Of a stretch of 64,000 bases of DNA, positions 19,339-41,294 are shown one piece after another. The position numbers and the translations under genes are program-made. The notes under the pieces are model-generated. The model was not told where the DNA came from. It searched no databases and saw only the letters and a program-made list of their open reading frames with translations. Positions within the stretch are counted from its first letter, which is position 1; the number at the start of each line of letters is the position of its first letter. This stretch comes from Nitrospirota bacterium (GTDB lineage Bacteria; Nitrospirota; Thermodesulfovibrionia; Thermodesulfovibrionales; SM23-35), in contig JBFLZS010000008.1 of the NCBI GenBank assembly GCA_040756135.1, positions 5,021 to 69,020 on the forward strand, given 5' to 3'.

Positions 19339-19887
19339 TCATTGAGATGGGTTGTGGACCACATTTGCCAGAAAGTGAAATATAATTCCGGGAAGTATAT
19401 TGTTTGTCTTCATATAAAGCCATCCCATCATAATGGATGGAAAAAAGCTGAGAAGTGATATCCAGTCATCGGCAAAAATAGCCTTTGGCAAGTGTGCAAT
19501 TGAAAACAGCAGGCTCACCAGTAAAACAGCCTTGAAGTTTCTCCCTATTGAATCCTGAAGAAATCCTCTGAAAAAGAACTCCTCTGGCAGAGAGATGATT
19601 AAAAGCTGGAAGATTATACCCCTCACCCATCCCTCTCCCTCAAGGTGAGGGGGGGAGGGCGAAAAGACAATATAGTAGGGCAAAAGTATAACAATAGATA
19701 CGATAAATCCTAAAAAAAAGTCATTTATCGAAAACCATAGTTTTACATTGTGGCCTACGATTATTGGAAACATCAGCATTATAATTGGTAACGAAACGTA
19801 AAAAATATTGTTTGCGGGCTTTATTGAATACAAGAGAAAAGATAAAATGAGAATAACAAAATAACCAGATATAGTCTTTATGTTCAT
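19339..19887 (-). CDS. CPBP-family (CAAX-protease-like) intramembrane glutamic endopeptidase
   Basis: A polytopic membrane protein with all three family motifs: EExxxR (LPEEFFFRGF), FxxxH (FSIAHL) and HxxxN (FHFLAN). A repeat-derived segment SPSPPHLEGEGWVRG precedes motif 1. Confidence 0.85.
   Translation of the reverse strand: MNIKTISGYFVILILSFLLYSIKPANNIFYVSLPIIMLMFPIIVGHNVKLWFSINDFFLGFIVSIVILLPYYIVFSPSPPHLEGEGWVRGIIFQLLIISLPEEFFFRGFLQDSIGRNFKAVLLVSLLFSIAHLPKAIFADDWISLLSFFPSIMMGWLYMKTNNILPGIIFHFLANVVHNPSQ
19620..19662. repeat. Variant G/C-run palindromic element, in-frame in the CPBP gene
   Basis: Sequence ccctcacccatccctctccctcaaggtgagggggggagggcg. Confidence 0.6.
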
Positions 19888-20036
19888 TTATAAATGATTA
19901 AATTAGGCATTTTGTCAATTTATAGTGAACGAATTTTAAAAGTTAAACATTTATAAACTCCTCATGGACACGCGAGACGTCTGTCCTACTGCGGATAAAA
20001 TCACATTTGAACTTATTTTTGTCGTTTATTATAGAT

Positions 20037-20936
20037 TCACAGACTCCCCTTTAAAGGAATCACATAATATCCCGGGGAAATTTTATACCTTTCAAGCTCA
20101 CCGCGAAATAAAGGGTTTTCAATAAAAGATATTCCGGGCATTAATTCCAAATTGAGGTTCATAACAGCATCTTTTACAGCGCCCTTCAACCTCGCATGGA
20201 TATCCTTTCCTTCAAGGGCGATAGAAACAACATTTATCATATTTCCTTTTATGTCTACAGTACCTCTTATGCTATTAAAAAAATTCAGAGGAACATTAAC
20301 CCCTGACAGAATCGCTGGCTCAAGTCTTGAATCTTCAGTAACAAACTCAACATGTCCTGTATCATCTAACATATTAAATCTTCCTGAAACGGTTCCGGTA
20401 CCCTGTATACCGATGAGTTTAAATAAAGGTATCCCATTTATATTAGCTTTGTTAATATCAAGCTCTATCTGCATCTTATTCTTTGTAAGATTCGCGCGCC
20501 CCGAAAAGTTCCCTCCTCCTATACCTCCGTCAAAGGATATATTCAACCATAACATTATAAAACTTAGCGGGCTTATATGGCCATAGATATTATTTAAAGA
20601 GACAAGTTCTTCTCCCGAGCTTTTTAGTGTTAACCTGTCAACAGCCAAATTATAAAATAAGCCTTTTTTAAGTCCTTTAACTTCCAACCCGAGCTTATCA
20701 CTATTAATAGAATCCTCTATGATGGATTGTATTGAGGCATTAGGAAATACTATCCATATCCCATAGAAAAGAACCGGAATGGCAGCAAGAGCGATAAGGA
20801 TCTTTTTGCTCGAAAATCCCTCTTCCCTTCCTGACAAATCCCCCCATCCCCCCTTTGCTAAAGGGGGGCGAGGGGGGATTACTAAAGGGCAGTTAGAGGG
20901 ATTACTTCTATTATTTTTTGTATTGCAACGGGGCAT
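20037..20936 (-). CDS. gspN: Type II secretion system protein GspN (assigned by position; start uncertain)
   Basis: It is the last gene of the gspC-N order and has a single N-terminal TM helix (ILIALAAIPVLFYGIWIVF). The ORF-track N-terminus runs through a family-A repeat, so the true start is probably downstream of 20837. Confidence 0.55.
   Translation of the reverse strand: MPRCNTKNNRSNPSNCPLVIPPRPPLAKGGWGDLSGREEGFSSKKILIALAAIPVLFYGIWIVFPNASIQSIIEDSINSDKLGLEVKGLKKGLFYNLAVDRLTLKSSGEELVSLNNIYGHISPLSFIMLWLNISFDGGIGGGNFSGRANLTKNKMQIELDINKANINGIPLFKLIGIQGTGTVSGRFNMLDDTGHVEFVTEDSRLEPAILSGVNVPLNFFNSIRGTVDIKGNMINVVSIALEGKDIHARLKGAVKDAVMNLNLELMPGISFIENPLFRGELERYKISPGYYVIPLKGSL
20837..20880. repeat. 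Family-A palindromic element in the gspN 5' region (IPPRPPLAKGGWGDL)
   Basis: Sequence aatccccccatcccccctttgctaaaggggggcgaggggggatt. Confidence 0.9.
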
Positions 20937-20943
20937 TATTGCT

Positions 20944-21450: not shown

Positions 21451-21467
21451 GCCCTTTTCTCCTTCTA

Positions 21468-21552
21468 AACGCAGATTATCGCAGATTATTTACAGATGTT
21501 CACAGATGCATCTGTGGTAATCTGCATCTTTTCATCCGTGTTCATCTGTGTT
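21468..21552. repeat. Tandem-heptamer hairpin module (gcagatta / cagatg units) at the gspL-gspM junction
   Basis: gcagattatcgcagattatttacagatgttcacagatg|catctgtggtaatctgc...catccgtgttcatctgtg. The centre cacagatgcatctgtg is a perfect palindrome. Confidence 0.75.
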
Positions 21553-22606
21553 CCACTTCCTTCGCTGTTATCGCAAACAACATTTTGCCCTGTGTAGATG
21601 CCTTTGAATCAGATATATTTACATCATCAAAGAGACGTTCGAGCTTAACCTTTACCCGTTGAATATCACTCAAAGACGATGCCTCGCCTTTCAGGGTCAG
21701 ATTTCCTCTATCTGCTGTTATTTCATTAAAAATAACACCCTGTCTATCAATCTGAGAAAGATTAAGAAGCAGGTTAAGCGGGTTAACACCAATAAAAAAC
21801 TCCTCTCTGTTTTTTAATTCCTTCATATGGGATTTAAGCTGATAAAGCTCATTTGTTATATTTTTTTCTCCGGGAAAGATCCCTTGATATACCTTTCGCA
21901 TATCACTCTTAAAAGATGCTATCTCCTGCCTTGCAGATACAATTTTTAACAATAAGTCAGATGCAAGAACAATCGCAAGCAATATCGCAAGTACTGCTGT
22001 TACTTTCAGGGATTTCCTGGTTTTTTCAATACCTCGAGTATATGAAAACTCATCTCTTCTTAGATTTATAGTAGGCGCTATTATCTCTTCAATCGCCAGT
22101 GGTATCCTGTCTTTATCCTCTAAAGAAGGTGCAAGAAGTCTCGCTAAGTTAAAATCCTTAAGTACGTTTTTAAGTTCTAAGGAAGTTATAAACTCAGGAT
22201 CTATGTTGTATGATTTTAATCTTTCAAGAATCCTGCTGATAATTGTTTTCTCAATATATACAGCAAGTACCTGATATTTATCGTCAGATTTACCAACGAC
22301 AATATTATCGAAAACCATTTTTTCTACCCCCCCAAATATCACCCCATCGAGTTCGAATGGAAGTATCTCCCTTATCCTATCCTTATCAGAAAATGGCAAA
22401 TCAATGACCCTGAAATTAAGACTGCTTATAGGTAAACTCAAACAGGCATTCTCTATATCCTTTGTTAAATCAATAGAGAAGTCATACCCATCACGCATGG
22501 GATAACTTTTGCTATCCTTTAATTCGAATCTGCCATGCCTGACCTCGAATATGTAAGTCTCTATTTCCCCTTCTTTTATATCAATAAAAATAGATCTGCT
22601 CATCAA
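21542..22606 (-). CDS. gspL: Type II secretion system protein GspL
   Basis: 354 aa: a cytoplasmic actin-like N-domain, a single TM helix (VTAVLAILLAIVLASDLLL) and a periplasmic C-domain. Its start overlaps the gspK stop. Confidence 0.65.
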   Translation of the reverse strand: MMSRSIFIDIKEGEIETYIFEVRHGRFELKDSKSYPMRDGYDFSIDLTKDIENACLSLPISSLNFRVIDLPFSDKDRIREILPFELDGVIFGGVEKMVFDNIVVGKSDDKYQVLAVYIEKTIISRILERLKSYNIDPEFITSLELKNVLKDFNLARLLAPSLEDKDRIPLAIEEIIAPTINLRRDEFSYTRGIEKTRKSLKVTAVLAILLAIVLASDLLLKIVSARQEIASFKSDMRKVYQGIFPGEKNITNELYQLKSHMKELKNREEFFIGVNPLNLLLNLSQIDRQGVIFNEITADRGNLTLKGEASSLSDIQRVKVKLERLFDDVNISDSKASTQGKMLFAITAKEVEHR

Positions 22607-23505
22607 TATTCCTTCCAGTATTCAATCCTGTTATATGATGTATTAAGAACTGTCTCGATTATCCTTTTAACACCACCAGAGTCAGCGGTGGATTTTATGT
22701 AAAAATTCTTCCCCTCAACTGTTATCTTACCCATGAGTGACTGACCTATAGTTGTCTCAAACCCTGCAACTTTAAAAATTTGCTCCACTTTCTCAAAAGG
22801 CGTAACCTTCCTGTAATCAATCACCCTTTGCGCAAGCCCTTCTGTTATATTATCCGAAAGACACCTGAGAACAGGTTTTTCAGCTCCATTAATATTAATT
22901 TGTGGCGATCTCCAATCTCCGTAGGTGGTTATGTATGGCAGTAATTTATCATAATCCTTCCTGCTTATTCCATTTATCAAAAGGATCTCATCAACACTGA
23001 CAAGACGCGAATTTTTTGCGCCCACCTCGGAATCAGTTAGTCTTGACTCGCTATTCGTGTCAATCCAGTCTACTATTCTATCTGCGATCTTCTCATCTAA
23101 TGAAAGAATTTTCAAAAGTCTTTTGAATGAATTATAAGGACTATTCATATCACTTTCATTAATTATCTCATTCTCGGGGACAATAGAATTGATGTTAAAC
23201 TTAGAATTTTCATCTTCTATCCTTACCAATATCGTCCCATTAAAATCTTCAAAGGGATTCTCTACGGGAAGATCTATAGAACCCGGATATGAATAATTAG
23301 ATTTATTTAGCAGGTCTGATAAAAACCTTGCTGATACATTTATACCTGATCTTGCCATTATAGAAAGTCGTTGAGAATCCCGCCAGTTATAAAGATCGCT
23401 TGTACCGGTATAGACCCCATATGAAAATTCCACCACCATAGCAGTAATCAGAACAAGGGCCAACAGGGTTATAACTAATGCTATACCTTTTTGATTATTA
23501 AACAT
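22603..23505 (-). CDS. gspK: Type II secretion system minor pseudopilin GspK
   Basis: QKGIALVITLLALVLITAMVVEF gives a GspK-type N-terminus without the Glu5. The size and position are typical. Confidence 0.8.
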   Translation of the reverse strand: MFNNQKGIALVITLLALVLITAMVVEFSYGVYTGTSDLYNWRDSQRLSIMARSGINVSARFLSDLLNKSNYSYPGSIDLPVENPFEDFNGTILVRIEDENSKFNINSIVPENEIINESDMNSPYNSFKRLLKILSLDEKIADRIVDWIDTNSESRLTDSEVGAKNSRLVSVDEILLINGISRKDYDKLLPYITTYGDWRSPQININGAEKPVLRCLSDNITEGLAQRVIDYRKVTPFEKVEQIFKVAGFETTIGQSLMGKITVEGKNFYIKSTADSGGVKRIIETVLNTSYNRIEYWKEY

Positions 23506-24908: not shown

Positions 24909-25460
24909 TCATTTTGAATTTTGAGTTATCTTTATTCTCCCACTCAGATGGTTGAGGGTAATTGTCATCCCTTTATCTCCTTTACCCATATGAACGCTGA
25001 TATTCTCTTGAATCCCAAGGGGGCCAAAAAAAAGTGTAATCTCGCCATCTGAGACCTTTCCTTTTGATTGCGTGGTTACACCGGTCATATCATCGAACCT
25101 TTTCGTCTTTTCCCCATCCGGTCCTACCCAGTAGACGGTACCTTCATCAAGGTCAAATTTCATCGAAAAGGTCTCCTTCCTTGATACAGCGCTGTCGTTC
25201 ATATACCTCAGTATTGAGGCAATCTCTCTTGACTCAGATTTGAGCTTACTCTCGCCAAAACCAGCAAAAGACGGAAAGATAAGAGCCATAACAATAGAGA
25301 TGATGAACATAACAACGATTAGTTCTAACAATGTGAAGCCCATTTCAGGTTGGTTTTTGCTTGGAACTTGGAACTTGGAACTTGGAACTTTTTTATTGCA
25401 TATCCCAGTTCTTGATATCCGCATTCTTGCCATCTCCACCTTCTTTTCCATCAGCGCCAT
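24909..25460 (-). CDS. gspH: Type II secretion system minor pseudopilin GspH (start uncertain)
   Basis: Prepilin-type site PEMG|[24 protein letters not shown]. The candidate ATG starts all overlap the gspG 3' end. The leader includes a (ggaactt)x4 tandem repeat. Confidence 0.75.
25347..25392. repeat. Tandem heptamer (ttggaac)x4 in the gspH leader-coding region
   Basis: ttggaacttggaacttggaacttggaactt at 25361-25390. Confidence 0.85.
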
Positions 25461-25824
25461 AACTTATTAAATCGAAATCACCGTAAAGGCCTGGCGATAT
25501 ATATATATAGGGATTGCCCCATGGGTCAAGCGGAATTTTCTTTTGCTCAAGGTATCCACCTTCCCTGTATTTCTGTGGTATCTGGCCTGCGGTTGGTTTC
25601 TCTATAAGTGATATAAGTCCCTGCTCGGTGTCTGGATAAAAGCCGTTGTCGAGCTTAAAGAGCTTGAGTGCCGTCTCAAAATTTTTTATCTGGACCTTTG
25701 CCTCTGCAATGCGTGCATCATCAGTCCGGCCTATTATCTTTGGTGCAACAATAGCTGCCAGGATGCTGAGTATAAATACAACCACAATTATCTCAAGAAG
25801 GGTAAAACCTTTATTATTAGTCAT
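25393..25824 (-). CDS. gspG: Type II secretion system major pseudopilin GspG
   Basis: MTNNKG|[23 protein letters not shown]...DPWGNPYIY...GADGKEGG. This is canonical GspG. Confidence 0.93.
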
Positions 25825-25938: not shown

Positions 25939-25945
25939 GACTAAT

Positions 25946-26186: not shown

Positions 26187-27362
26187 TCATTTTATCAACT
26201 GGTTCAACTGGAATATCGGCAAAAGAACTGCAAGGACTATAAATCCGACAATAAGCCCCATAAAAAGAATCATTGCAGGTTCAAGAAAAGAAAGGGCCTT
26301 CTGTACCTTTCTCGAGAATTCTTCCTCATACGAATCTGCAGCTTTCTTCAGCACCTCAATTAGTCTCCCACTCTTCTCTCCAGTTGCGATTAATTGAAGA
26401 AGCACAGGCGGGAATCCCTCAAGGGATGCAGAAAGCCCTGCCCCTTCTGCAACCCGTTTGCCACCTTCAATCACCTTTGTCTCAAGTATCTTATTCCCGA
26501 TAGACTTTGCAGCAAGCTCAAGCGACCTCAAAACAGGAAGACCCCCTCCGAGCAAAGAACTAAATGTCCTCGTAAATCGTCCAAAATAAAGGCTCTGTAA
26601 TATATTTCCGGGCAAACGTAAAACAAGCCTATCAATAAATAATCTTTTCCTTTCACTCAGTCTTCTAAAACCGAATACACCTGCCAGAATTATTCCCAAT
26701 AAAAGCCACCAGTAGTTTTGAAAAATATCACTAATGGTTATAAGCACAATAGTGATAAAAGGCAGGGCGCTCTCTGTATCCTTAAATATCTTTGTTATCT
26801 TCGGTATAACAAAGATAAACAAAAAGGAGAGAACAACAAAACCAATACAGATCATAAAAATAGGATAAACCATTGAGGTTCTTACCTTTGATCTGAGGTT
26901 AGCCTGTGCCTCCAAAAAATCTGACAGACGTCTGAGAATATCATCAAGATTTCCGCCTGCCTCTCCTGCAGCAACCATATTTACATAAAACTCAGGGAAA
27001 ACCTTTTCATAATCCTCAAGCGCCTTTGAAAAGCTCGACCCTCCGGCGACCCTTTCCTTTATGTTCACTAACATGTTTTTCCAGAAACCCTTATTTTCCT
27101 CAGAGATTGAACTCAGCGCATCCATCAGGGTCACACCTGATGAAAGTAAGGTTGATAACTGCCTTGTTATTGATGGGAGAAGGGATATATCAGACCTGTG
27201 GAATAGACTGAAACCCCTTTTATAAACAGCTTCCTTTACATTTTTTGGGTAAAGACCTGAGTCTTTAAGCCTTAAGACTGCATCCTTGAGGCTGTTTGCC
27301 TCAAGGGTCCCTGCTACCTCCGAGCCGTCTGACCTGTATCCTCTATACTGAAATATCGGCAT
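26187..27362 (-). CDS. gspF: Type II secretion system inner-membrane platform protein GspF
   Basis: A duplicated GspF/PilC domain architecture with three TM segments. It lies between gspE and gspG. Confidence 0.9.
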   Translation of the reverse strand: MPIFQYRGYRSDGSEVAGTLEANSLKDAVLRLKDSGLYPKNVKEAVYKRGFSLFHRSDISLLPSITRQLSTLLSSGVTLMDALSSISEENKGFWKNMLVNIKERVAGGSSFSKALEDYEKVFPEFYVNMVAAGEAGGNLDDILRRLSDFLEAQANLRSKVRTSMVYPIFMICIGFVVLSFLFIFVIPKITKIFKDTESALPFITIVLITISDIFQNYWWLLLGIILAGVFGFRRLSERKRLFIDRLVLRLPGNILQSLYFGRFTRTFSSLLGGGLPVLRSLELAAKSIGNKILETKVIEGGKRVAEGAGLSASLEGFPPVLLQLIATGEKSGRLIEVLKKAADSYEEEFSRKVQKALSFLEPAMILFMGLIVGFIVLAVLLPIFQLNQLIK

Positions 27363-27386
27363 ATATTATAAATACCTAAAATATAA

Positions 27387-27430
27387 ATCCCCCCTCACCC
27401 CCCTTTACTAAAGGGGGGAGTGGGGGGATT
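27387..27430. repeat. Family-A palindromic element, gspE-gspF intergenic
   Basis: Sequence aatcccccctcacccccctttactaaaggggggagtggggggatt. Confidence 0.9.
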
Positions 27431-27436
27431 TTTCAT

Positions 27437-29005
27437 TTATATTTCAACAGCATCCTTTTGCGTTACTCGCAGGACTTCTTCAAGTGTAGTAATGCCCATC
27501 ATAACCTTTTCGATGCCGTCCTGACGCAGTGTCTTCATCCCTCTTGAGACTGCATAATTTTTTATGCTCTGAGAATCTATCTTCTCTGTAATCATGGGTC
27601 GTATCTCGTTATCTATCACAAGAAGCTCAAAGATTCCTGTTCTTCCAAAATATCCCTTGCCTTTACAATTATCACAGCCTTTACCTTTGTAAAGCATAAA
27701 AGGGGCAAGGGGGAAGGGGGAAGGGGCAAGTTTATCATGACCCATGACCCATGACCCATGACCCCTAAAATATTCAATTTCTACATCAGAAGGCTCATAC
27801 GATACCTTGCAGTGAGGACATATTGTCCTTACAAGTCTTTGCGCAATAACAGTCGTGAGTGATGATGCAACAAGAAATGGTTCAATGCCCATATCTATGA
27901 GTCTGACAAGGGCACTTGGTGCATCATTCGTATGAAGGGTGCTTAAAACGAGGTGGCCTGTGAGCGATGCCTGCATTGCGATTTCAGCAGTCTCGAGGTC
28001 CCTTATCTCACCGACCATTATTACATCCGGGTCCTGCCTCAATATTGATCTAAGTCCAGAGGCGAATGTAAGCCCTATTTTAGGATTCACATGAACCTGG
28101 CCAATACCCTTCAATTGATATTCAATGGGATCCTCGACTGTTATTATATTTTTCTCCTCTGTATGAATCCTGTTAAGGGCTGCATAGAGGGTTGTAGTCT
28201 TACCGCTTCCTGTAGGACCTGTGACAAGTATAATCCCATCAGGTTTTTGAAGGTATTCTTCAAGCCTTTTTTCGTCATCCTTGCTGAAACCAACCTCCCA
28301 TAGACCCAGTAGGCCATGCCTCCTGTCAAGAAGCCTGAGTACCGCCCTCTCGCCATAAGATGTAGGTATTACAGAGACCCTTATGTCTATATCCCTTCCA
28401 CCGAGCAGGAGTCTTATCCTTCCATCCTGTGGCAGCCTCTTTTCAGCGATATCAAGATTTGACATTATCTTAACCCTGCTTATCAGGGCTTCCTGAATTA
28501 TCTTTGGAGGTGTCAACACCCTGTGCAATACTCCGTCTATCCTGAACCTGACATCGAGTTCTCTCTCGAAAGGTTCGATATGGATATCGCTTGCCCTTTC
28601 TTTTACTGCCTGAAGAAGAAGGGCATTGAGGAGTCTTATGATGGGAGCCTCTTCTGTTAACTCAAGTAGGTCCTTTGGCGCCTCAAATTCTGTTGCAACA
28701 GATGAAAGGTCCTCCCCGCTTATGGTATCCATTACTTCTTCTGCAGAACCTATCTGGCCATAAAACCTGTTAATTGCATTTAGAATAACACCTGCTGTTG
28801 CCTTTAACGCCCTCGGCTTCAAACCAAGAGATCTCGAGATCTCAGCAAGCGCCAGTATCCCTCTATCATCTGCAACAGCTCCGAATAGTTCAGAATTATT
28901 TTTCTTTATGGGGAATATCCGATTGTTTTTAACAAAGCTGACAGGAATATCCTTCAAAATGGATAACTCTACATCCTCATCTTTTATTATTTCGATAGTT
29001 TCCAT
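27437..29005 (-). CDS. gspE: Type II secretion system ATPase GspE
   Basis: Walker A GPTGSGKTTT, Asp box, Walker B ILRQDPDVIMVGEIRD, His box and a tetracysteine CPHC...CDNC. A repeat-derived insertion lies between the Cys pairs. Confidence 0.93.
   Translation of the reverse strand: METIEIIKDEDVELSILKDIPVSFVKNNRIFPIKKNNSELFGAVADDRGILALAEISRSLGLKPRALKATAGVILNAINRFYGQIGSAEEVMDTISGEDLSSVATEFEAPKDLLELTEEAPIIRLLNALLLQAVKERASDIHIEPFERELDVRFRIDGVLHRVLTPPKIIQEALISRVKIMSNLDIAEKRLPQDGRIRLLLGGRDIDIRVSVIPTSYGERAVLRLLDRRHGLLGLWEVGFSKDDEKRLEEYLQKPDGIILVTGPTGSGKTTTLYAALNRIHTEEKNIITVEDPIEYQLKGIGQVHVNPKIGLTFASGLRSILRQDPDVIMVGEIRDLETAEIAMQASLTGHLVLSTLHTNDAPSALVRLIDMGIEPFLVASSLTTVIAQRLVRTICPHCKVSYEPSDVEIEYFRGHGSWVMGHDKLAPSPFPLAPFMLYKGKGCDNCKGKGYFGRTGIFELLVIDNEIRPMITEKIDSQSIKNYAVSRGMKTLRQDGIEKVMMGITTLEEVLRVTQKDAVEI
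27700..27765. repeat. Tandem-heptamer block module, in-frame in gspE (HGSWVMGHDKLAPSPFPLAPF)
   Basis: A (gggg[c/a]aa) x4 block, a spacer gtttatc, then (atgaccc) x4. Confidence 0.85.
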
Positions 29006-29104: not shown

Positions 29105-29110
29105 TGTCCT

Positions 29111-32413: not shown

Positions 32414-32440
32414 CTAAGGGGCTTGTATAATCAGAATAAC

Positions 32441-32563
32441 TTATCTCCTTCGCCTCATTAATGCTATAACAACCAAAGGTATCATCATCACTGCAAGGTC
32501 AGCGATTGCTGTTGGCGTATTTTGCCTCGGGCCTATGGAACAACTTCCTCCGCCGCCACTATG
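32441..32563 (-). other. Candidate C-terminal sorting signal (GGGGSCSIG, hydrophobic helix, RRRR)
   Basis: The same tripartite layout as 19177-19314. Confidence 0.6.
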
Positions 32564-34396
32564 CCCACTTTCTGGTAAGGGGGTTGTAGTAGATACCTCG
32601 GTTGAATAAAAAGACTCTGCAATGTCGTTATATGCCTTTATCCTGTAAACATATATCGTATTAGGTGTCAATCCGCTATCTGTAAAGGATAAGGAATTCG
32701 GCGGCAATGAAGGCTGTATATCTGTGTAAGTGCCTCCGCTAATCTTTCTTTCTATCTTATATCCACCTTCACCTGTTGCATTATCTGACCATGTAAGTGA
32801 GATCTGGGTTGGAGATATACCAGTGGCAGTAAGATTTGTTGGAGTCCTTAAAAACGATAGTGCCTTATATGCATTAATCCTTCCGCCAGTCTGTATCCAG
32901 CCGCTCAGTGTCGGCAATGGATCTACCATCCTGAGAATTGCGGTACGAATCTGAGAATAATCAAACTGTGTATTATGAATCCCATCATAATAACTGTAAA
33001 GCAATCCTGCAAGACCTGATACGTGGGGGGCTGCCATGGAAGTCCCTTCGAAAAACTCTAAAATTCCATATTCATTCAGAAGAATTGTGCTGAGGATATA
33101 TACACCAGGCGCTGCTACATCTACAGAGGTTGGGCCGAAATTACTGAAAGATGCCCGCTGGTCATTCTGGTCAGTAGCAGCAACAGAAATGATATTGGGG
33201 AGGTCATAGCTGGCCGGATACATCGGCGTCAGATCATTATTGTACCCTTCGTTACCAGCAGCAGCTATAAGCAAAATACCCGCTGTGTTTGCCTCTGCTA
33301 TGGTATCGTATTCGGCCTGAGAATATCCATAGCCACCGAAACTGGCATTTATTGCCTTTATGTCTATACCACTATTTTTCAATAGTATCGCATAATCCAA
33401 GGCTTCAATCTCGTCATCTGTTGTCCCATATCCATCTGCATTAAGAAATTTAAGGGCCATTAGCTTCACATACCACATTACCCCTGATACCCCTGTTCCG
33501 TTGTTTCCTACAGCCCCTATAATGCCAGCAACATGTGTCCCGTGTCCATATTCATCCATAGGGTCATTGTCTGGTGATTTTGAAGTCGTACAATTTCCCT
33601 CATCATCAAATTCTTCACATGTCGTGAAGTCCCATCCCTTGCAGTCATCTATAAATCCATTTTCATCATCGTCATCTTCTAAATCATTAGTATAGCCGGC
33701 TTCCCCGGGTTGCAGACCGGTGGAATCCTCATCAACCTTGCCATCTCCGTCATCGTCTACCTCACATATCCCTGGGCATCCATCGCCGTTTGCGTCACCA
33801 ATAGCCTCTTTATTATTAGTCCATATATTTCCAGCCAAATCGGCATGATTATAATCAATCCCTGTATCAAGGACAGCTATAACAACGCTGTAACTACCTG
33901 TTGAGATATCCCATGCCTCCGGTGCATCTATATCGGCATCAACAGTGCCACCAGCATACGTGCCCGTATTGTGCAGGGCCCATTGGTTTCCGAAATAAGT
34001 GTCATTCGGTATCCTGGACAAGGCGCGCTTTATATAATTAGGCTCTGCGTATTCCACATTCGGGTCAGACATATACTGCATTATTGCATCCTTTACTGAC
34101 AGACCCTGTGGCAGTTTTACACGCTCAAGATTAGGCACAATAGTAAACCTCTTCTTCACAGATGCACCAACCGCCTGATGGATTTTAAGTGACGATGTTG
34201 TTACAACGCCGGATTTGAATTTAACGAGCAACTCTCCCTCTTTGTACTTCCCTTTTTCCATCTGAGAGATTATGGATTGTGCGGTGATTTTTGTACCACT
34301 AATCTCCTTTGAAGTATCTGAAGAGATGCTTGTGGTCTTTTCATTGCCGCATGAGGCAAGAATCAAAACCATTAACAGATAGAATAATTTCTTCAT
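32441..34396 (-). CDS. S8 subtilase lipoprotein with fervidolysin-type prodomain, acidic Ca-binding-like insertion, Fn3 domain and Cys-containing C-terminal tag
   Basis: Lipobox LILASC. Prodomain GELLVKFK...VEYAEPNY. Catalytic contexts AVLDTGI, YGHGTHVAG and EGTSMAAPHVSG. A D-rich insertion lies between the Asp and His. Fn3 segment ISLTWSDNATGEGGYKIER. Tail HSGGGGSCSIGPRQNTPTAIADLAVMMIPLVVIALMRRRR. Confidence 0.92.
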   Translation of the reverse strand: MKKLFYLLMVLILASCGNEKTTSISSDTSKEISGTKITAQSIISQMEKGKYKEGELLVKFKSGVVTTSSLKIHQAVGASVKKRFTIVPNLERVKLPQGLSVKDAIMQYMSDPNVEYAEPNYIKRALSRIPNDTYFGNQWALHNTGTYAGGTVDADIDAPEAWDISTGSYSVVIAVLDTGIDYNHADLAGNIWTNNKEAIGDANGDGCPGICEVDDDGDGKVDEDSTGLQPGEAGYTNDLEDDDDENGFIDDCKGWDFTTCEEFDDEGNCTTSKSPDNDPMDEYGHGTHVAGIIGAVGNNGTGVSGVMWYVKLMALKFLNADGYGTTDDEIEALDYAILLKNSGIDIKAINASFGGYGYSQAEYDTIAEANTAGILLIAAAGNEGYNNDLTPMYPASYDLPNIISVAATDQNDQRASFSNFGPTSVDVAAPGVYILSTILLNEYGILEFFEGTSMAAPHVSGLAGLLYSYYDGIHNTQFDYSQIRTAILRMVDPLPTLSGWIQTGGRINAYKALSFLRTPTNLTATGISPTQISLTWSDNATGEGGYKIERKISGGTYTDIQPSLPPNSLSFTDSGLTPNTIYVYRIKAYNDIAESFYSTEVSTTTPLPESGHSGGGGSCSIGPRQNTPTAIADLAVMMIPLVVIALMRRRR

Positions 34397-34600: not shown

Positions 34601-37600
34601 TTATCTTATACCCTTACCAGTTAATGTTACTTTAGCCTTAGGTGTATCCGGGTCATTGGATGAAATAGTGAGATAATAAGGGTTATAGTATGCTACCCGT
34701 GTTGGATTAAACACAAGTGTAATAGTACACGATGCAGAAGATGCAAGTGTTTTTCCTTTACATGTATCTGAAGTAACCCTGAAAGGCGTTCCAGGATATT
34801 GTATCGAGCTTATTACAAGGTCAGCACCGCCTGTATTTGTAACGGTTACTGTTGATGGTGAAGAGGTAGTTCCAACTCTATAAGTTCCAAAGTTTATTGA
34901 TGTCGGATTTACTTGTATATTCGTTTGCCCAACTCCGGTGCCAGTCATAGTGACAGTTACATTAGGCGTATCCGGATCATTCGATGAAATGGTGGTACTT
35001 GAATTAAATGTACCTGTGCTTGTTGGAGCAAATCTCACGGTTATTTGGCATGTCGCTCCTGCAGATATAGAAGCGCCAAGGCAGGTGTTATTCGTTATAC
35101 TGAAAGGAGCAGACGGACTCGTAACAGAGGAAATTGTGAGATTTCCTGTCCCGTTGTTAGTAACCGTTATGTTCTGATCAGATGATGACGCTACCATAAC
35201 TGTCCCGATGCCACTACCCGTTATGCCCTGACCAGGTGATCCTACCATAACATTCCCAAAGTTCAATGTTGTAGGTACTACACTGATATCAGGGATTACC
35301 GAACCTGTTCCTGATAAAAACACAGTATATGCAGGTGTATCCGGATCATTCGAGTTTATTACAAATGATGATTGTTTAAATCCAGCACTTGTCGGGGCGA
35401 ATACAATTGTTATAGTACAGGTTGCCAGTGGAATAAGGGTTCCCGGACAGTCACTTGCTGATATGCTGAAACCTTCTGACGGGTTTGTCAGTCCTGTGAT
35501 ATTTAGATTTGCAGAACCATTATTAGTCACTGTAATATTCTGACTTGATGTTGAACCAACAGGGGTGCTCGGGAAATTAAGAAAACTTGGAGATACATTT
35601 ATGTCCGGCGTCACTACTCCTTCGCCGCTGAGATTTACAGTAACTGTGCCTTCATCAGGGTCACTTGATACAATGGTTATGTTTGATGCAACACCACCGT
35701 CTGTTACAGGAGCAAAACGCACACTTATCTGACAGCTATTCCCTACGGCAAGGGTAAATGGAACCGGTGAGCAGGTATTGCTTACAATGCTGAAAGGCGC
35801 AACAGGACTGCTAACAGAATTGATTGTTAACACAGCAGTTCCATCGTTTCTGACGGTGATATTCTGCTGAACGTTCTGTCCTACCTGGACATCCCCAAAA
35901 TTGATATTTAGCGGGTTAACAGTTATATCCTCAGCGCCTTGACCAGTTCCTGAAATCGCTACATTCAGTGTTGGCGTATCAGGATCGTTCGAGTTTATAC
36001 CAAACTGTGAATTGAAAGGCCCTACGGCTGTTGGTGTAAATCGTACGACGATATTACACGTTGAACCCGGAGCAATATCCTGTCCGGAACAGCCATCGCT
36101 CTGGATGCTGAATGGTGTAACAGGATTATTCAAAGAAGTTATTCTTAAGGTTGCAATACCTGTGTTCTTCACAACAAATGTCTGGTCCTTATAACTACCG
36201 ATGTAAACAGTTCCAAAATCGTATGGTACTGCTGGTGAGAAGATCGTTATATCAGCCTCTTTTGAGAGTGCTGAAAGATTTACCTGGGGACTTCCACCGT
36301 CAGATTCAATGATAAAACATCTGTTAAAACTTCCACCTGCTGTTGGAGTAAATCTTACAGTAAGTATGAGCTCTGCTGAAGGCACAAGATCAAGAGTAAT
36401 CCCATCATCATACATAAGCTGAGAAGGAAGACCATCGAATGAGAAAGGCGTGATATCCCTCGGAGGCGCTGGGCCATTGCATGACAGATCTTCATTAATA
36501 AAGTCTATCAGTAATGTTGTATCACCTGTATTCCTTATCTTGAAAGATACTGCATCAGTAAGTCCTACCTCAACTCCTCCACTGCCAACAGGATTTTCGT
36601 AATCAGAAAGTAAAGGCGGCGTTAATGGTGTATCATCCATCTTCAAAAGTGTTAGAGACGGCTGGCCGAGGGTAAACCTCTGACCATAAACATCTGAGCT
36701 GCAAGGTCGGATACCTGTACCAACTCCTCCTGTCAGACTGCAAGTACTTATGTCTGTATTCCTCGCATCTTTCCACACAGTAAGGAACTGATTGGTAACA
36801 TCGTTATATGCAATTGTGGGAATATACTGGTTATAGGGAAGTGTAAACACAGCATAATTATATCCCCTCAATGAACCCTCTGCGTCAACCTTTTGACCAT
36901 AAATGTCAAGGTTTTCAAGGGAAAGCGTGCCGTTTCTTCCATCCTGCCATATCACAAAGAACCTCTGATTCACACCGTCATAAGAGACAAACGGCTTAGT
37001 CTGTTTTGAATTCATAACGTTTGCATCATTTTCCCCATCCCCATCAGTGTCTTCATAGCTTATGATGAGATTATCATTATAGGGACCGCCTCCTGAATAG
37101 ACAATCTGTCCATATATCTTTGTATTCGCACCACCCCTCAGGTCTTCCCATCCAACAAGGAATCTCTTTGTTACAGGGTCAAATGCAACTGATGGATAGT
37201 AAGCTGTTGAGGTATTTGCGGGATCCAATGAAAGCCTTTTAGAAAGTATAACACTTTCGGAAATCTCTTTATCAAAAAGCCCGAATATATTTGCAAACCC
37301 TTCATTATCCTCCTCAAAAAATAATGATTCGAAAGAAGATGTTATCGTGTCTGCTGAGTCACATACCTCATTATTATTATTATCCTTACACGTACAGGTA
37401 AGAACTCCTTTTCGTCTTACACCTTCCCATACTATAAAATCCTCGGGAGATGTTGTATCATTTGAGGTGGTTATATTATTAGAGTCTGTAAAATACTCAT
37501 AGGTATATGTTTCTTTCATTGCCTCATGACTGGCACATAGCAGCCTGTTTGTCCTTACCCGCGCATTTCTTATGATATCTGCGCCGTTTACACCTATATC

Positions 37601-38674
37601 GTTTGTAAGCTCTGCAAAGGTAGCGCCATCAAGCATCACATAGCCCGGGAAAGAGTTATCACCAAACTGCCAATTATGAACTTCAAGACCAAAACAAATC
37701 TGGGAGATTCTGTTCAACGTGTTTCTTGACTCAATCCATACAATCCAGAACATGTCTCTAACAGGGTCATAGGATATCTTTGGTAATTTTCTTGAGAGAA
37801 GATCGTCACCCGCTGAAATCTCAGGGAAGGTATATATTAGAAGATTATAGGTATAAGTTGCGGTGATCATAGCTAAGGGAGGAGGACCTGTACCAAATGT
37901 AACAGTCATGGCACCGGTGTCATAATCTATTGCACCGGTCGCAGTCCCGTCAGCCCCCGGCATGAAATGACCAAATCCATCGTCAATTGCTTGTTGTGGT
38001 GTTAATGGATCATCAATAGTAACACTTGTTGGAACCACATTGGGTTCCAAAAATGCACTAAATTGTGCAGTAGTTCCATCGCCCATACCAATAAGCTGGG
38101 TAGTTGGAGTTGGTATTTGGTTTATAATCCTATCATATTCATTAGTATCATTGAAGGCTATCGGTGTCCCGCTCGAAGGAGCTGGAGGTACGTAAGCAGC
38201 ACAGTTGCTTGGATCCGGGAAGGAAGTTATTGATGAGTAATAAACATATCCAGCATTTGTAGTACCTCTCGTATCCTGCCATACCACAAGTACAGTGTCA
38301 TCTCCAGATGGAGCGGCAAGGAGGTCTTTATCCCTGTATGCTGACCATGGTACTGTCTGATTCCCTTGCACATTAACAATGGCGAATTCATCACCGCATA
38401 AATTTCCATCGTCTCCATTGATAAACTGACCATAAATATCCGCACCAGAGGTTGTGAAATTCCTCCGGTCCTCCCAGACCACAAACCATAGATTCTTGTC
38501 GGGTAAATATATTGTGTGGGGATTCTGCTGGTCGTATGCCTTACTCGCTATTGCTATGTTATCTCCTACATAACCTGCTGTCACCAGAGAGGGGGAAAGA
38601 AGTGATATCACTATGAAAAGGATTACCGGGATGGTATTTAATAACCCTTTTTTCTTTGAATTTCGGTTATTCAT
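34601..38674 (-). CDS. Very large secreted or surface protein: N-terminal W-x-D-x-R...IYGQ repeat region plus about six choice-of-anchor-D/ASH-type beta-sandwich repeats
   Basis: Signal or anchor LLNTIPVILFIVISLLSPSLVTA. Six copies of a VxWxDxR..(D)IYGQ motif lie in the first 700 aa. The C-terminal half has repeats of FG.V.VG......TV.N.G...L.I.S......PFS.....C.......C.I.V.F.PT..G......I.SNDPDTP...V.L.GTG. Confidence 0.8.
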   Translation of the reverse strand: MNNRNSKKKGLLNTIPVILFIVISLLSPSLVTAGYVGDNIAIASKAYDQQNPHTIYLPDKNLWFVVWEDRRNFTTSGADIYGQFINGDDGNLCGDEFAIVNVQGNQTVPWSAYRDKDLLAAPSGDDTVLVVWQDTRGTTNAGYVYYSSITSFPDPSNCAAYVPPAPSSGTPIAFNDTNEYDRIINQIPTPTTQLIGMGDGTTAQFSAFLEPNVVPTSVTIDDPLTPQQAIDDGFGHFMPGADGTATGAIDYDTGAMTVTFGTGPPPLAMITATYTYNLLIYTFPEISAGDDLLSRKLPKISYDPVRDMFWIVWIESRNTLNRISQICFGLEVHNWQFGDNSFPGYVMLDGATFAELTNDIGVNGADIIRNARVRTNRLLCASHEAMKETYTYEYFTDSNNITTSNDTTSPEDFIVWEGVRRKGVLTCTCKDNNNNEVCDSADTITSSFESLFFEEDNEGFANIFGLFDKEISESVILSKRLSLDPANTSTAYYPSVAFDPVTKRFLVGWEDLRGGANTKIYGQIVYSGGGPYNDNLIISYEDTDGDGENDANVMNSKQTKPFVSYDGVNQRFFVIWQDGRNGTLSLENLDIYGQKVDAEGSLRGYNYAVFTLPYNQYIPTIAYNDVTNQFLTVWKDARNTDISTCSLTGGVGTGIRPCSSDVYGQRFTLGQPSLTLLKMDDTPLTPPLLSDYENPVGSGGVEVGLTDAVSFKIRNTGDTTLLIDFINEDLSCNGPAPPRDITPFSFDGLPSQLMYDDGITLDLVPSAELILTVRFTPTAGGSFNRCFIIESDGGSPQVNLSALSKEADITIFSPAVPYDFGTVYIGSYKDQTFVVKNTGIATLRITSLNNPVTPFSIQSDGCSGQDIAPGSTCNIVVRFTPTAVGPFNSQFGINSNDPDTPTLNVAISGTGQGAEDITVNPLNINFGDVQVGQNVQQNITVRNDGTAVLTINSVSSPVAPFSIVSNTCSPVPFTLAVGNSCQISVRFAPVTDGGVASNITIVSSDPDEGTVTVNLSGEGVVTPDINVSPSFLNFPSTPVGSTSSQNITVTNNGSANLNITGLTNPSEGFSISASDCPGTLIPLATCTITIVFAPTSAGFKQSSFVINSNDPDTPAYTVFLSGTGSVIPDISVVPTTLNFGNVMVGSPGQGITGSGIGTVMVASSSDQNITVTNNGTGNLTISSVTSPSAPFSITNNTCLGASISAGATCQITVRFAPTSTGTFNSSTTISSNDPDTPNVTVTMTGTGVGQTNIQVNPTSINFGTYRVGTTSSPSTVTVTNTGGADLVISSIQYPGTPFRVTSDTCKGKTLASSASCTITLVFNPTRVAYYNPYYLTISSNDPDTPKAKVTLTGKGIR

Positions 38675-38817
38675 AACTACCTCCTTCTGATTTTCAATTT
38701 ACTATTAAACAGCCTTAAAATAAGGAAATATAACTATCACCCTCCTCTCTATTCAGGGTGGAGAGGTAATAACGCCCTATTTCCACCCTGATAAAGAAGC
38801 AATTTTTATGCCATAAT

Positions 38818-40686
38818 TTACTCTATTGTTACAATTGCTTCGACCATCCTGCCATTTGCATCCCTTACCGTAATAGTGACTGATCCTGTCTCAATTCCAA
38901 CCACTGTGAAGCTTCGTGGATCTTCAGTTTCATCATACTGTATGTCAACTTTCATATTATCCTGGAATATATCGAATGGCTCTACTCCGCCGAATATAGT
39001 GAATGCCATTGCTCCATCTACTATAATTGTTGCACTTTCAGGTAGCAGATAGTAATCAGTTGTAACTGATGTAATATTGAGAGTTGCGGTTGCTGTTGAT
39101 CCGACAGAATCCATGACAATATATGTAACTGTTGTCACAGGTGTATTTGGTGGAACATCAACAGTAAACGCACCACCGCTTGTGATGCCAGATTCAGGGT
39201 CTGGAGGGAACGACGGATTGTTTGTGTATACACTATATGGCTCAACCCCTCCAAAGATAGTAAAGGTCGCTGTTCCGCCTGGAGCACCATTCACAGTTTG
39301 CGATGAAGGCACCACCGATATTGGCCTTATAGGCGGCACATCAAGAATAAGCGATGCTGACACATGATCGCCATTACTCGTATCGTAGACTGTTATGGTA
39401 ACAGTTGTGTCTTCTGTTGGAACACTTGCTACTGTTGCTGTCAAAGTAGAGTCTGTGACTGCTACTATAACCAGTGAAGGATGACTTGAGTATGCAGAGA
39501 ATGGGCCTGTACCGCCTAATATTGTGTAAGTTGCAGTATCACTTACTGCTGGATCCGCAATGGTCTGTGTAGTTGGTATTACTGAAAGAGGTACAGAAAG
39601 TTTCACGGTCACATTTGTTGAACCGCTCATGCCACCTGCTGTAGCAGTGATTTTACATGTACCTGCTGTAGAAGGTGCAGTAAAGTCAGCCGTTGCAACG
39701 CCACCACTTGTCTGGGCAAAAGGAGTAACAAACCCACATGTTGATGTACAGGTTGCGGCATCGCAGGTTGTAAAACCCACTGTTGTTCCATCAGGAGCAG
39801 TACTGCCAGTATTGAGCGTTACAACAGCATTTATTATGGAAGAGCCTTCAGTCTCTACGATTGAAGGATTGGCAGTTACAGCAATGTTGGTCACAGTCAC
39901 GGCCTCAAGGAATAGTGTCACCATGTTTGCAGCACCATTGTCTGCTGAAGCAGTGACATTCAATACCGTTTGAAAGTCTCTAATAGTAGTTGGATTAACC
40001 ATTATGTAGGCAAATGCCTGTCCTTCACTATTTGTAGTTTTAATATATTCATCATTAAGGAACGATGCCTCTGTGCTGTCAGTGCCAAAGGTAACAGTGC
40101 TATTAGATACAGGATTATCATATCCATCATAGACTGTTGCCATTATCTTTACCCAGATGTCTTCCTCATCCTGTAATAAAATATAATCATCTGGCTCATT
40201 ATAAAGTCCATTATATGGAGTGCCATCCACATCGAGTGTAAGATGGGGTAAAAATGCTGTTGTTGGCCATGTAAGATCATAAATCGAGAAATATACTGTC
40301 TTCCTGTCTCTTATCTTACCTGTTCCATTATCTACCTCAGCCTGTACTGTCATAAATCCATATGATGTTGAAGATGCAGTTACTGTTGCATATCCAGAGC
40401 TGTCAGTATTTGCGGACGTTGCACTTAATCCTGGAACTAATGAGGAAAGGTTCGTAAAATAGACAGGTATATTACTAATCGGATTTCCGTTTCCGTTGAG
40501 AACCCTTGCTTTCATATAAATAAATCCGTTTGTCTGTACAACATACTGGGAAGGCCTTAGTTCTACGCTGAAGGGGACATCAGTGTCTTCCCCGGGAGGC
40601 GAACTTGACGAGCCGGCTCCCCCTCCACAGCTTATCATCGAAAATATAGCAGAAATGAGAATCAATAATATTAAATTTTTTTTCAT
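38818..40686 (-). CDS. Lipoprotein with Big-1-like and three further Ig-like repeat domains
   Basis: The likely start is the ATG at 40686, with GGAGGTGGAG upstream and an ATGA overlap with the upstream stop. Lipobox IFSMISC. Big-1-like segment YMKARVLNGNGNPISNIPVYF...TDSSGYATVT. Three repeats contain TxTIxGGxxPF/Y. Confidence 0.75.
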   Translation of the reverse strand: MKKNLILLILISAIFSMISCGGGAGSSSSPPGEDTDVPFSVELRPSQYVVQTNGFIYMKARVLNGNGNPISNIPVYFTNLSSLVPGLSATSANTDSSGYATVTASSTSYGFMTVQAEVDNGTGKIRDRKTVYFSIYDLTWPTTAFLPHLTLDVDGTPYNGLYNEPDDYILLQDEEDIWVKIMATVYDGYDNPVSNSTVTFGTDSTEASFLNDEYIKTTNSEGQAFAYIMVNPTTIRDFQTVLNVTASADNGAANMVTLFLEAVTVTNIAVTANPSIVETEGSSIINAVVTLNTGSTAPDGTTVGFTTCDAATCTSTCGFVTPFAQTSGGVATADFTAPSTAGTCKITATAGGMSGSTNVTVKLSVPLSVIPTTQTIADPAVSDTATYTILGGTGPFSAYSSHPSLVIVAVTDSTLTATVASVPTEDTTVTITVYDTSNGDHVSASLILDVPPIRPISVVPSSQTVNGAPGGTATFTIFGGVEPYSVYTNNPSFPPDPESGITSGGAFTVDVPPNTPVTTVTYIVMDSVGSTATATLNITSVTTDYYLLPESATIIVDGAMAFTIFGGVEPFDIFQDNMKVDIQYDETEDPRSFTVVGIETGSVTITVRDANGRMVEAIVTIE

Positions 40687-41294
40687 TCTCCACCTCCGCA
40701 CATATTAAAATCTGCTAAATAAATGTCATATTCCGTCTGGAAACTACCCTCTTCTCCAAAATTATTCACATATTTGCAATTGTACTGTGCTATATAATGC
40801 GTGGGATACTCTCCAGGTACATTTGTACCATAATATATAGCATTCCAATAAGCCTGTTTTCTGTCTATATCAATTAAGGTAACGTTGCATGAATTAGAAC
40901 CTTCTATGATAGGACAGTTCGGATAGATATTCAAAGATTCAATTATAGGTGAAGATGGATCCTCAATAGCTTTTTTGTAAGTTATCGTACATTGTTCAAC
41001 ACTTGCAGGATAAGGATCAACTGTGCTGTCTGGATTCAGTTTTTCAGATTCTATAGAAATTGTTGCATCTTCCCTTGTAAGGCCTGGCTCAGATGTCCCA
41101 CCAGCACAACAATCAGGACAGGAATATACATCAAGATCAGGAGTTTCACTTGTTATACTGACTGACTTAATATTGATCCCTGTGTCCTCACTTCCTGAAG
41201 AACCCGGTGAGCCCGGACCTTCACCACACCCCCAAAGAAAGACTGAAAGCAGAAGATAGAAAATAGAAAACAGGAAAAAATACTTTCTCTTCAT
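40683..41294 (-). CDS. Hypothetical lipoprotein
   Basis: The likely start is the ATG at 41294, with AGGAGG 5 nt upstream. Signal MKRKYFFLFSIFYLLLSVFLWGC (lipobox). Cys-rich, with no recognised domain. Confidence 0.65.
   Translation of the reverse strand: MKRKYFFLFSIFYLLLSVFLWGCGEGPGSPGSSGSEDTGINIKSVSITSETPDLDVYSCPDCCAGGTSEPGLTREDATISIESEKLNPDSTVDPYPASVEQCTITYKKAIEDPSSPIIESLNIYPNCPIIEGSNSCNVTLIDIDRKQAYWNAIYYGTNVPGEYPTHYIAQYNCKYVNNFGEEGSFQTEYDIYLADFNMCGGGE

Follow-up and report, generated by a model that had tools for sequence, protein, structure and literature searches.

In a 64-kb stretch of DNA from a metagenome-assembled genome of Nitrospirota (Thermodesulfovibrionales), referred to here as the window, we have found a 22-kb block of genes that we interpret, with reasonable confidence, as a type II secretion system (T2SS) physically linked to a myxosortase-like C-terminal sorting system, whose tag and protease subfamily are undescribed. 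A listing of open reading frames (ORFs) and family scans place on the minus strand, from position 41294 down to 19339, a small lipoprotein, a Big_1 lipoprotein, a 1357-aa Ig-repeat protein, a tagged subtilase of the S8 family (S8a), the genes gspC to gspN and a CPBP-family intramembrane protease. All of these genes had been named by an initial annotation of the same DNA and all are present where it had placed them; a second tagged subtilase (S8b, plus strand) indeed converges on the far end of the block, leaving a gap of 24 nt to the CPBP gene. The interpretation offered in that annotation is supported here, and what it had not recognised is the likeness of the system to the myxosortases. Its view that T2SS loci usually do not carry their substrates in line was overstated, because some dedicated T2SS clusters are known to have lipoprotein cargo in line, such as that of T2SS-beta of Escherichia coli with sslE/yghJ (PMC3707838, PMC5012682). 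In-line T2SS cargo alone thus has precedent, and the unusual feature of the block is the placing of machine, protease and targets side by side.

The working scheme that we propose rests on analogy with Myxococcus xanthus, where the protease MrtX cleaves the MYXO-CTERM signal in a Cys-dependent manner and MYXO-CTERM proteins require a T2SS (PMC11980579; 10.1101/2023.06.07.544157); it is by this analogy that we predict that CPBP cleaves, that the Cys is lipidated, that the T2SS is required and that secretin and protease bind each other. Tagged proteins, which are S8a and S8b here and in relatives also include giant Ig-repeat proteins, would be exported by Sec and retained in the inner membrane by the transmembrane (TM) helix of the tag, with its basic cluster in the cytoplasm. 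The invariant Cys after a poly-Gly run would then be modified, probably by lipidation, CPBP would remove the TM helix, and the protein, folded and anchored by its lipid, would be taken by the GspC-N machine through the secretin GspD and onto the cell surface. Once the N-terminally lipidated pro-domain has been cut off, the mature protease would still be held on the cell by its C-terminal anchor.

S8a (32441..34396, minus strand) and S8b (17014..19314, plus strand) are subtilase lipoproteins of identical architecture, consisting of a lipobox, a Fervidolysin_NPro pro-domain, an S8 domain, fn3 and the tag, the lipoboxes being those that the initial annotation had given. The tag is coded at 32444-32554 in S8a, which ends ...GGGGSCSIGPRQNTPTAIADLAVMMIPLVVIALMRRRR, and at 19183-19311 in S8b, which ends ...GSGGGACSIGMVHSYQTAVADTIVLITPLLIILIIKRFRKFQDKA. 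It consists of poly-Gly and an invariant Cys, the latter followed by [S/A]-[I/V]-Gly; about 12 spacer residues, closing with QTAxAD, then lead to a TM helix with a conserved Pro, and a Lys/Arg cluster comes last. The conserved residues are G, G and C followed downstream by T, D, P and R, and the same plan is retained by orthologues in more than 20 loci. A profile made of the tag only, which is biased towards the S8a-type tag, matched 41 proteins at E<=1e-3 among 1.84 billion cluster representatives, and in all 41 the match lies at the C-terminus or within about 25 residues of it. The passengers are mutually unrelated, comprising S8 subtilases, He_PIG Ig giants, a Temptin_C-like protein, a TSP3-repeat protein, proteins of no family and a 1397-aa HYDIN/ASH/DUF1573 protein whose architecture is that of the 1357-aa protein of the window. 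Most passengers begin with a lipobox or a signal peptide, and homologues that are untagged or differently tailed exist. The gene of the tagged Temptin_C-like protein lies at an unrelated locus, and more tagged proteins have their genes elsewhere, as in locus L094; because tagged proteins such as the Temptin_C-like one occur also outside the locus, CPBP probably serves a small target set rather than one target. A search of a 5.8-billion-protein index with the tag-only alignment returned two fragments. As a separate observation, one tagged subtilase obtained in the tag search (P0262, 868 aa) has its S8 domain interrupted by a metallo-beta-lactamase-fold domain (Lactamase_B_2/3).

Haft lists, as attributes 1-8 of tripartite sorting signals, a C-terminal location, several copies per genome, at least three near-invariant signature residues, a TM helix, a basic cluster, N-terminal signal peptides, unrelated passengers, and homologues that are without the signal or carry another one. 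Each of these eight attributes was found for the tag described here, of which the window holds two copies. When the isolated tails were compared with curated CTERM models, only MYXO-CTERM (TIGR03901) gave a score, of 7.9 bits (E=4.1, threshold 20), and nothing was obtained on the others, Synerg-CTERM (TIGR04564) included.

The CPBP/Rce1-like glutamic protease (19339..19887, minus strand), about 180 aa in length, matches PF02517 at 70.5 bits (threshold 22.4), and the EExxxR, FxxxH and HxxxN motifs, which are invariant in an alignment of 23 CPBP homologues, are intact in it. When compared with the PDB, its AlphaFold model (pLDDT 84) matches a single structure with confidence, that of the archaeal CAAX protease MmRce1 (4cad; probability 1.0, TM 0.60). 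A "Nitrospirota bacterium" entry at NCBI is identical to it over 144 residues and is annotated with a later start. In the ranking of NCBIfam models, the top five, and six of the seven best, belong to the myxosortase family, with scores below the curated cut-offs in every case: MrtS 68 (cut-off 130), Mrt_core (NF040914) 65.3 (100), MrtP 65 (250), MrtC 53 (195), MrtJ 45 (75) and MrtX 43 (180). More distant homologues in Myxococcota and Nitrospirales that share its peptide patterns score 107-116 on Mrt_core and so exceed the cut-off of 100. The description that suits the family best is that of an uncurated, divergent relative of the myxosortases; by the curated test it is not one of them. Two tagged proteins are encoded within 15 kb of CPBP, one of them directly adjacent, and by analogy we propose CPBP as the tag-cleaving enzyme.

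Synteny was examined in 30 loci having a CPBP of at least 50% identity, available up to 10 kb to each side and all from Thermodesulfovibrionales or Thermodesulfovibrionia, of which 25 (23 distinct contigs) reach at least 3.5 kb downstream. The gspN gene lies on the opposite strand no more than 2.9 kb from CPBP in 24 of the 25, and at 5.2 kb in the remaining one; an S8 gene, tagged wherever it is intact, stands between the two in 22, and CPBP abuts gspN directly in three. The consensus order is aspS(+), aroC(-), CPBP(+), S8-tag(-), gspN...gspC(-), a variable slot and pilQPONM(-), and the S8 gene adjoining gspN in relatives is the orthologue of S8b. Independent assortment of the gsp genes and the flanking genes, which would have spoken against a coupled block, is not what the relatives show. 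The coupling of cargo, T2SS and CPBP that had been suggested from the window holds as a conserved neighbourhood; co-transcription is not the conserved feature, since CPBP is convergent in the relatives. More distant loci give independent support to the link between CPBP and tag in contexts that differ. Locus L034 of Thermodesulfovibrio sp., whose CPBP is 43% identical, encodes, in this order, a tagged Ig-repeat protein, CPBP and gspC-gspD within a reshuffled T2SS operon; in L035, CPBP is convergent on a tagged S8 gene beside pilQ, and in L054 (Thermodesulfobacteriota) CPBP is followed by a tagged S8 gene, no T2SS being nearby in either. The adjacency of enzyme and signal in at least 20 loci is suggestive.

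Several points weigh against the interpretation of the block as a T2SS linked to a sorting system. The tag obtains just 7.9 bits on MYXO-CTERM and nothing on the other CTERM models, and CPBP is under the cut-off of Mrt_core (65 against 100) and of every Mrt equivalog. The three untagged proteins upstream in the window are without a direct link to CPBP, and no lipid-transfer enzyme was identified. Scans for sigma-70 promoters and intrinsic terminators were at chance level when compared with shuffled controls (63 against 57±6, 20 against 16±5, 21 against 21.5±5.4 and 8 against 4.8±2.0). For CPBP homologues of 45% identity or less in Thermodesulfobacteriota, Dadabacteria and Myxococcota, the 10 kb on each side contain no T2SS, and L009, the locus with the closest secretin relative (88% identity), has no CPBP or S8 gene in the 1.5 kb available past gspN. 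Finally, aroC and aspS are conserved beside CPBP in the same loci as gspN is, and therefore part, perhaps much, of the synteny is plain vertical inheritance within one order. The last point, together with the failure at the curated myxosortase cut-offs and the distant homologues lying away from any T2SS, would agree with a rival explanation in which the whole neighbourhood is kept by descent, CPBP is an unrelated protease of housekeeping or immunity type and the tails are plain membrane anchors that are never cleaved. We consider this explanation unlikely, because CPBP accompanies a tagged protein in L034, L035 and L054, in other contexts and without aroC, because the invariant Gly-Cys, the conserved residues of spacer and TM helix and the portability of the tag would be needless in a simple anchor, and because the best family matches of CPBP are specifically sorting proteases. 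With regard to L009, positions 19914-22205 of that locus have gspN followed by an unrelated 183-aa lipoprotein gene and a larger gene on the opposite strand, and in this sub-lineage the junction past gspN seems liable to rearrange.

The most novel and most testable element of the block is a fusion in the secretin. The gspD gene (29111..31405, minus strand) encodes a secretin scoring 555 bits on TIGR02517 (cut-off 351), with Pfam N0, three Secretin_N and Secretin domains, and its C-terminal module, coded at 29114-29368, resembles a subtilase pro-domain. The cargo-related domain that the initial annotation had noticed in the secretin is real: residues 680-758 match PF22148, the Fervidolysin N-terminal pro-domain, with E=4e-15 (56.3 bits, gathering threshold 21), and the domain has 43% identity to the pro-domain of S8b over 74 ungapped residues and 39% to that of S8a. 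Among the best 120 homologues (65-90% identity), the module is present in all 119 that are full-length, and it is absent from the GspD of L034, where the local cargo is no subtilase. The AlphaFold model of the domain (pLDDT 85-93) has a beta-alpha-beta-beta-alpha-beta fold, and although a sequence search of the domain against the PDB found nothing, the top fold matches are 1spb_P, 3whi, 1scj_B, 9fid and 1r6v, which include the prosegment of subtilisin BPN', pro-subtilisin E, a furin/PC1 pro-domain and fervidolysin. A literature search on fusions of a secretin with a subtilase pro-peptide found nothing relevant.

The end of the module is of special interest. Alignment with the crystallised catalytic domain of deseasin MCP-01 puts the start of mature S8b at about residue 126-127, and therefore the tail of its pro-domain is AEPNYIVKK(A). 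GspD ends AEPNYIMKIR-COOH, within one residue of the cleavage point deduced for the pro-domain, and most homologues likewise stop five residues past NY. In its fold and in the C-terminal motif YAEPNY the module agrees with subtilase pro-domains and I9 inhibitors (1spb, fervidolysin 1r6v), whereas it is placed at the C-terminus of a secretin and theirs at the N-terminus of a protease. In subtilisins, the C-terminus of the cleaved pro-domain remains in the active-site cleft as a product-like inhibitor, as seen in structures such as 1spb and 1scj. The C-terminus of known secretins is outside the barrel, which leaves for the module the roles of dock, chaperone, inhibitor or aid to assembly. To judge from sequence and modelled fold, the module may associate with the catalytic domain of S8 in the manner of a cleaved pro-domain, and would in this case serve as dock, chaperone or inhibitor. 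A bolder version, which we offer only tentatively and think rather doubtful, is that the module is a built-in, cargo-specific receptor or inhibitor, about 15 mimics per pore binding the active-site cleft of S8 via their free C-termini. The free C-terminus of GspD would then, just as tentatively, mimic the product end of a cleaved pro-domain and dock, chaperone or silence the protease at the T2SS.

The rest of the machine, encoded on the minus strand throughout, is assigned with varying firmness. Scores above the cut-offs were obtained for GspE, the ATPase (27437..29005; TIGR02533, 700 bits against 630), the major pseudopilin GspG (25393..25824; TIGR01710, 171 against 89), GspK (22603..23505; NF037980, 149 against 130) and the Leptospira-type GspN (20037..20936; TIGR04411, 82 against 50). 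The platform protein GspF (26187..27362) has TIGR02120 as its best match, at 394 bits under the equivalog cut-off of 424, and its orthologues in relatives have Pfam T2SSF. GspC (31419..32294), with its HR domain and PDZ, scores best on the 'delta' model NF041515 (GspC_delta; 145 bits, cut-off 150) and matches Pfam T2SSC and PDZ; its third-best match is NF041616, a model built for the GspC of the Synerg-CTERM-associated T2SS of Synergistota (63 bits, cut-off 200). GspL (21542-22606) obtains 61 bits on TIGR01709 (cut-off 65), Pfam GspL_C, and 21 on the Synergistota-specific GspL model (cut-off 150). GspH (24909-25460), GspI (24383-24868) and GspJ (23665-24402) each have a prepilin N-methyl domain and find the right pseudopilin model as best match, under its cut-off, and the order gspH-gspI-gspJ is conserved among relatives. 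The putative gspM (20944-21450) is assigned by its position and a single N-terminal TM helix; profile scans of the window ORFs gave it no family match, and an orthologue of 164-169 aa is kept in all relatives. As had been noted before, gspO and a pilotin gene are absent: neither the prepilin peptidase family nor a pilotin family was found among the window ORFs of at least 150 aa outside longer assigned genes, and the prepilin peptidase is probably shared with the type IV pilus. The idea of a liposecretin was rejected, as the Cys in the signal peptide of the window GspD is not conserved among its homologues.

That CPBP and tag form a sorting pair does not by itself put the T2SS on the path of the tagged proteases, and one may suppose that these stay periplasmic or in the inner membrane, or leave by another path, while the T2SS exports other proteins. 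L035 and L054, with CPBP and tagged S8 but no T2SS nearby, and the JDVT-CTERM systems, which are two-gene units with no T2SS link reported, would fit such an arrangement. We nevertheless hold it to be quite improbable: CPBP is close to gspN in 24 of the 25 loci, it sits inside the T2SS operon in L034, the secretin bears the pro-domain of the cargo, and both experimentally studied analogues, MYXO-CTERM and GlyGly-CTERM, require a T2SS.

Between pilQ and gspC lies a slot that in relatives always contains a small lipoprotein followed by large secreted proteins, the set of which varies. In the window, the type IV pilus genes pilM-N-O-P-Q (41686..46919, minus strand) form its upstream boundary, which is conserved, and the pilM-N-O-P-Q order is the same in L008-L010 and L092. 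The first gene 3' of pilQ (40683..41294, minus strand) encodes a small Cys-rich lipoprotein of 203 aa with the lipobox LWGC, to which NCBIfam and Pfam scans gave no family match; a lipoprotein of 145-210 aa stands right after pilQ also in L008, L009, L010 and L092. The idea that this lipoprotein is a pilotin finds sequences that look beta-rich and Ig-type, again with no family match. The gene of this small lipoprotein overlaps by ATGA with that of the Big_1 (invasin/intimin-like Ig) lipoprotein of 622 aa (38818..40686, minus strand; Pfam Big_1 64 bits). Next comes the 1357-aa secreted Ig-repeat protein (34601..38674, minus strand), of the choice-of-anchor D, HYDIN/VesB-like, ASH and DUF1573 type (NF012200 304 bits; PF22544 198 bits), which has a signal peptide and no C-terminal tag, and no tag relic was found in the DNA downstream of its gene.

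The slot holds clients of the tag system in some genomes, which supports the idea that its proteins are cargo. L008 has in it an orthologue of the Big_1 protein, a tagged S8 orthologous to S8a, and TPR and FecR genes, whereas L009 and L010 have giants of the HYDIN type (1505 and 2024 aa) and a DsbC_N protein. L092 reads infB, rbfA, a DHH-family gene, truB, pilMNOPQ, the small lipoprotein and a tagged 1575-aa He_PIG protein (P0274), and in L091 a tagged HYDIN-type protein (P0275) follows a similar small gene. The HYDIN-type family of passengers thus occurs with three C-termini, untailed as in the window, with the Cys tag, or with a Cys-less tail. The Cys-less form was observed in the giants of L009 (4170-8687) and L010 (2626-8700), which end in an alternative tail of TM helix and basic cluster (…YPFLAGGLLLVGISIAGTRFVRRE…). 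For the small lipoprotein, the Big_1 protein and the 1357-aa protein of the window, there is a real though minority chance that they are pilus-associated or independent surface proteins and that only the S8 genes belong to the system, considering that these three genes directly follow pilQ without a tag in the window and that the variable slot includes TPR, FecR and DsbC_N genes. We lean towards their being cargo, because proteins of the same architecture or the same slot are tagged elsewhere (P0275, P0274 in L092, and L034), and because two of the three are lipoproteins, a class known to be surface-exposed via T2SS (PulA, SslE; PMC5012682).

Among known systems, the likeness is closest in outline to MYXO-CTERM/MrtX of Myxococcus xanthus, with which the block shares a CPBP glutamic protease, a tripartite signal with an invariant Cys after Gly, a Gram-negative host, a 'delta' GspC and the proposed order of Sec, Cys modification, cleavage and T2SS display. 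It differs in its Nitrospirota host, MYXO-CTERM being confined to Myxococcota, and in the tag, which has a single Cys, the spacer of about 12 residues ending in QTAxAD, an Asp before the TM helix and a Pro in it, while MYXO-CTERM often has GCGC and no Pro or charge in the TM helix, in keeping with TIGR03901 not being matched. The enzyme, its targets and the T2SS are neighbours here, whereas Haft reports that mrtX never shares an operon with a target, and targets are few, with 41 clusters in 1.84 billion representatives, against dozens per genome in myxobacteria. Synerg-CTERM/MrtS of Synergistota is similar in another manner: MrtS is the best NCBIfam model for CPBP, the signal there has a Gly/Ser-rich run ending in one Cys and a conserved Pro in the TM helix, and it is associated with a divergent T2SS, to whose specific models the GspC and GspL of the window match weakly. 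The scores on these Synergistota models are far below cut-off here, Synerg-CTERM has no spacer between Cys and TM helix, and its link to the T2SS rests, according to Haft, on a phylogenetic profile.

Other comparisons bear on separate parts of the block. As in JDVT-CTERM/MrtJ, the protease gene adjoins a target, targets per genome are few and an acidic residue precedes the TM helix; the differences are the low score on MrtJ (45 against 75), another signature motif and the absence of any T2SS link in descriptions of JDVT-CTERM, which Haft describes as a two-gene unit, whereas at least two targets are found here in one locus and more tagged proteins elsewhere (L094). GlyGly-CTERM with rhombosortase and VesB in Vibrio cholerae combines a secreted serine protease, a Gly-rich tripartite tag, intramembrane cleavage and anchoring by way of the T2SS, on which GlyGly-CTERM proteins depend, much as we predict for the block; in that system the enzyme is a rhomboid serine protease and not a CPBP glutamic one, the tag has no Cys, and the cargo is S1 in place of S8. 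The sslE/yghJ locus of E. coli T2SS-beta and pulA of Klebsiella also encode lipoprotein substrates with the machine, which are displayed on the surface as is proposed here, but genes for a prepilin peptidase and a pilotin belong to those clusters, which have no C-terminal tag, CPBP or cargo-derived secretin domain.

The window carries a local inversion of the CPBP-S8b pair and an added subtilase, S8c. Its orientation is seen in no relative: CPBP is convergent with the gsp genes there and co-directional with them here, and the inversion has therefore made CPBP co-directional and S8b convergent. S8c (14193-16526, minus strand; I9 pro-domain, S8 and fn3 by family scans) is untagged, and 75 nt downstream of its stop lies an out-of-frame relic of tag-coding sequence of 76 nt (14043-14118), without the poly-Gly-Cys motif and the basic cluster (…GLVHNYQTAVADTIILLMPLVVILI…). 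This relic is the left arm of a 76-nt inverted repeat with 19204-19279, the two being 83% complementary, which points to loss of a tag or recent rearrangement. A simple inversion between the relic and the S8b tag (19204-19279) was tried and rejected, as it does not regenerate the arrangement of the relatives. A shorter inverted repeat of 18 nt, AATTGACAAAAT(A/G)CC(C/T)AA, which contains TTGACA, was observed at 16900-16917 and 19903-19920, upstream of both S8b and CPBP and on either side of the segment whose orientation differs from that in all relatives. It may represent a promoter element common to the two genes, a recombination site or chance. S8c is followed by a gene for a lipoprotein with a PrcB_C domain (13345-13836), a pair which we take to resemble prcB/prtP of the dentilisin complex of Treponema, and all three S8 proteins give weak matches to the PrtP model.

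As to transcription, the minus-strand run extends past 41294 to pilMNOPQ and onwards to 64 kb, all real genes of this part having the same direction, and therefore co-directionality alone is weak evidence. The short spacers and overlaps that had been described for the block were confirmed for the ATGA overlap, but not throughout, since six spacers measure 143-362 nt. Several spacers are filled by repeat elements. One is a palindromic element of about 45 nt, AATCCCCCC-nnn-CCCCCCTTTnnTAAAGGGGGG-nnn-GGGGGGATT, with 13 core copies against 0 expected by chance, found at 1641-1704, 12364-12415, 12991-13054, 19630-19670, 20825-20889, 23864-23928, 24330-24381, 24745-24821, 27375-27439, 29049-29113, 31306-31370, 32358-32422, 43873-43937, 53194-53245 and 59665-59729. 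Because it is palindromic, ...PPxPPLxKGGxGG... is encoded on either strand. Orthologue alignment identified in-frame insertions of the element in a loop of CPBP, in AroC (twice), in GspJ and in GspE, and its presence varies among related genomes. It behaves like the Rickettsia palindromic elements. Other copies fill the gspE/F, gspD/E and S8a/gspC spacers, and still others make the ORFs of gspD, gspN and pilQ reach upstream beyond their true starts; in gspD and gspN the long additions at the N-terminus are probably artefacts of the repeat, and the true start of gspD is likely the GTG at 31312. A second, mosaic family is hairpin-rich and intergenic, with the core GTCATTCCCCGACTTGATCGGGGAATCCAG, and lies at 562-635, 7284-7462, 25942-26053, 41337-41650, 47107-47430, 48274-48580 and 61228-61409. 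It fills the two largest gaps around the block, between gspF and gspG (362 nt) and between pilQ and the lipoprotein gene (352 nt), and one of its copies is the only coding-strand intergenic match resembling a terminator (26044-26022). Repeats of another kind were observed in pilQ itself, where three tandem 48-nt units (43346-43489) encode a Glu/Pro-rich linker, …EELLPTKEE(L/P)PEEIP…, which joins the AMIN-type N-terminal region to the secretin core.

Sorting of the myxosortase type has been shown experimentally in Myxococcus only, where the link to the T2SS is genetic, and the occurrence of protease, tagged targets and T2SS together in another phylum gives gene-neighbourhood evidence for a three-way partnership. 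The locus defines a signal and a protease subfamily that are uncurated, current annotation saying just "CPBP family" and "S8 family". As a compact unit of 22 kb, it could be transferred to a heterologous host for studies of Cys modification, cleavage and secretion. The question of how cargo is recognised by a T2SS is an old one, and a secretin bearing the pro-domain of its cargo makes one specific answer directly testable; if the receptor reading of this module is true, it would be the first secretin with a module taken from its own substrate, and would provide a handle on cargo recognition by the T2SS.

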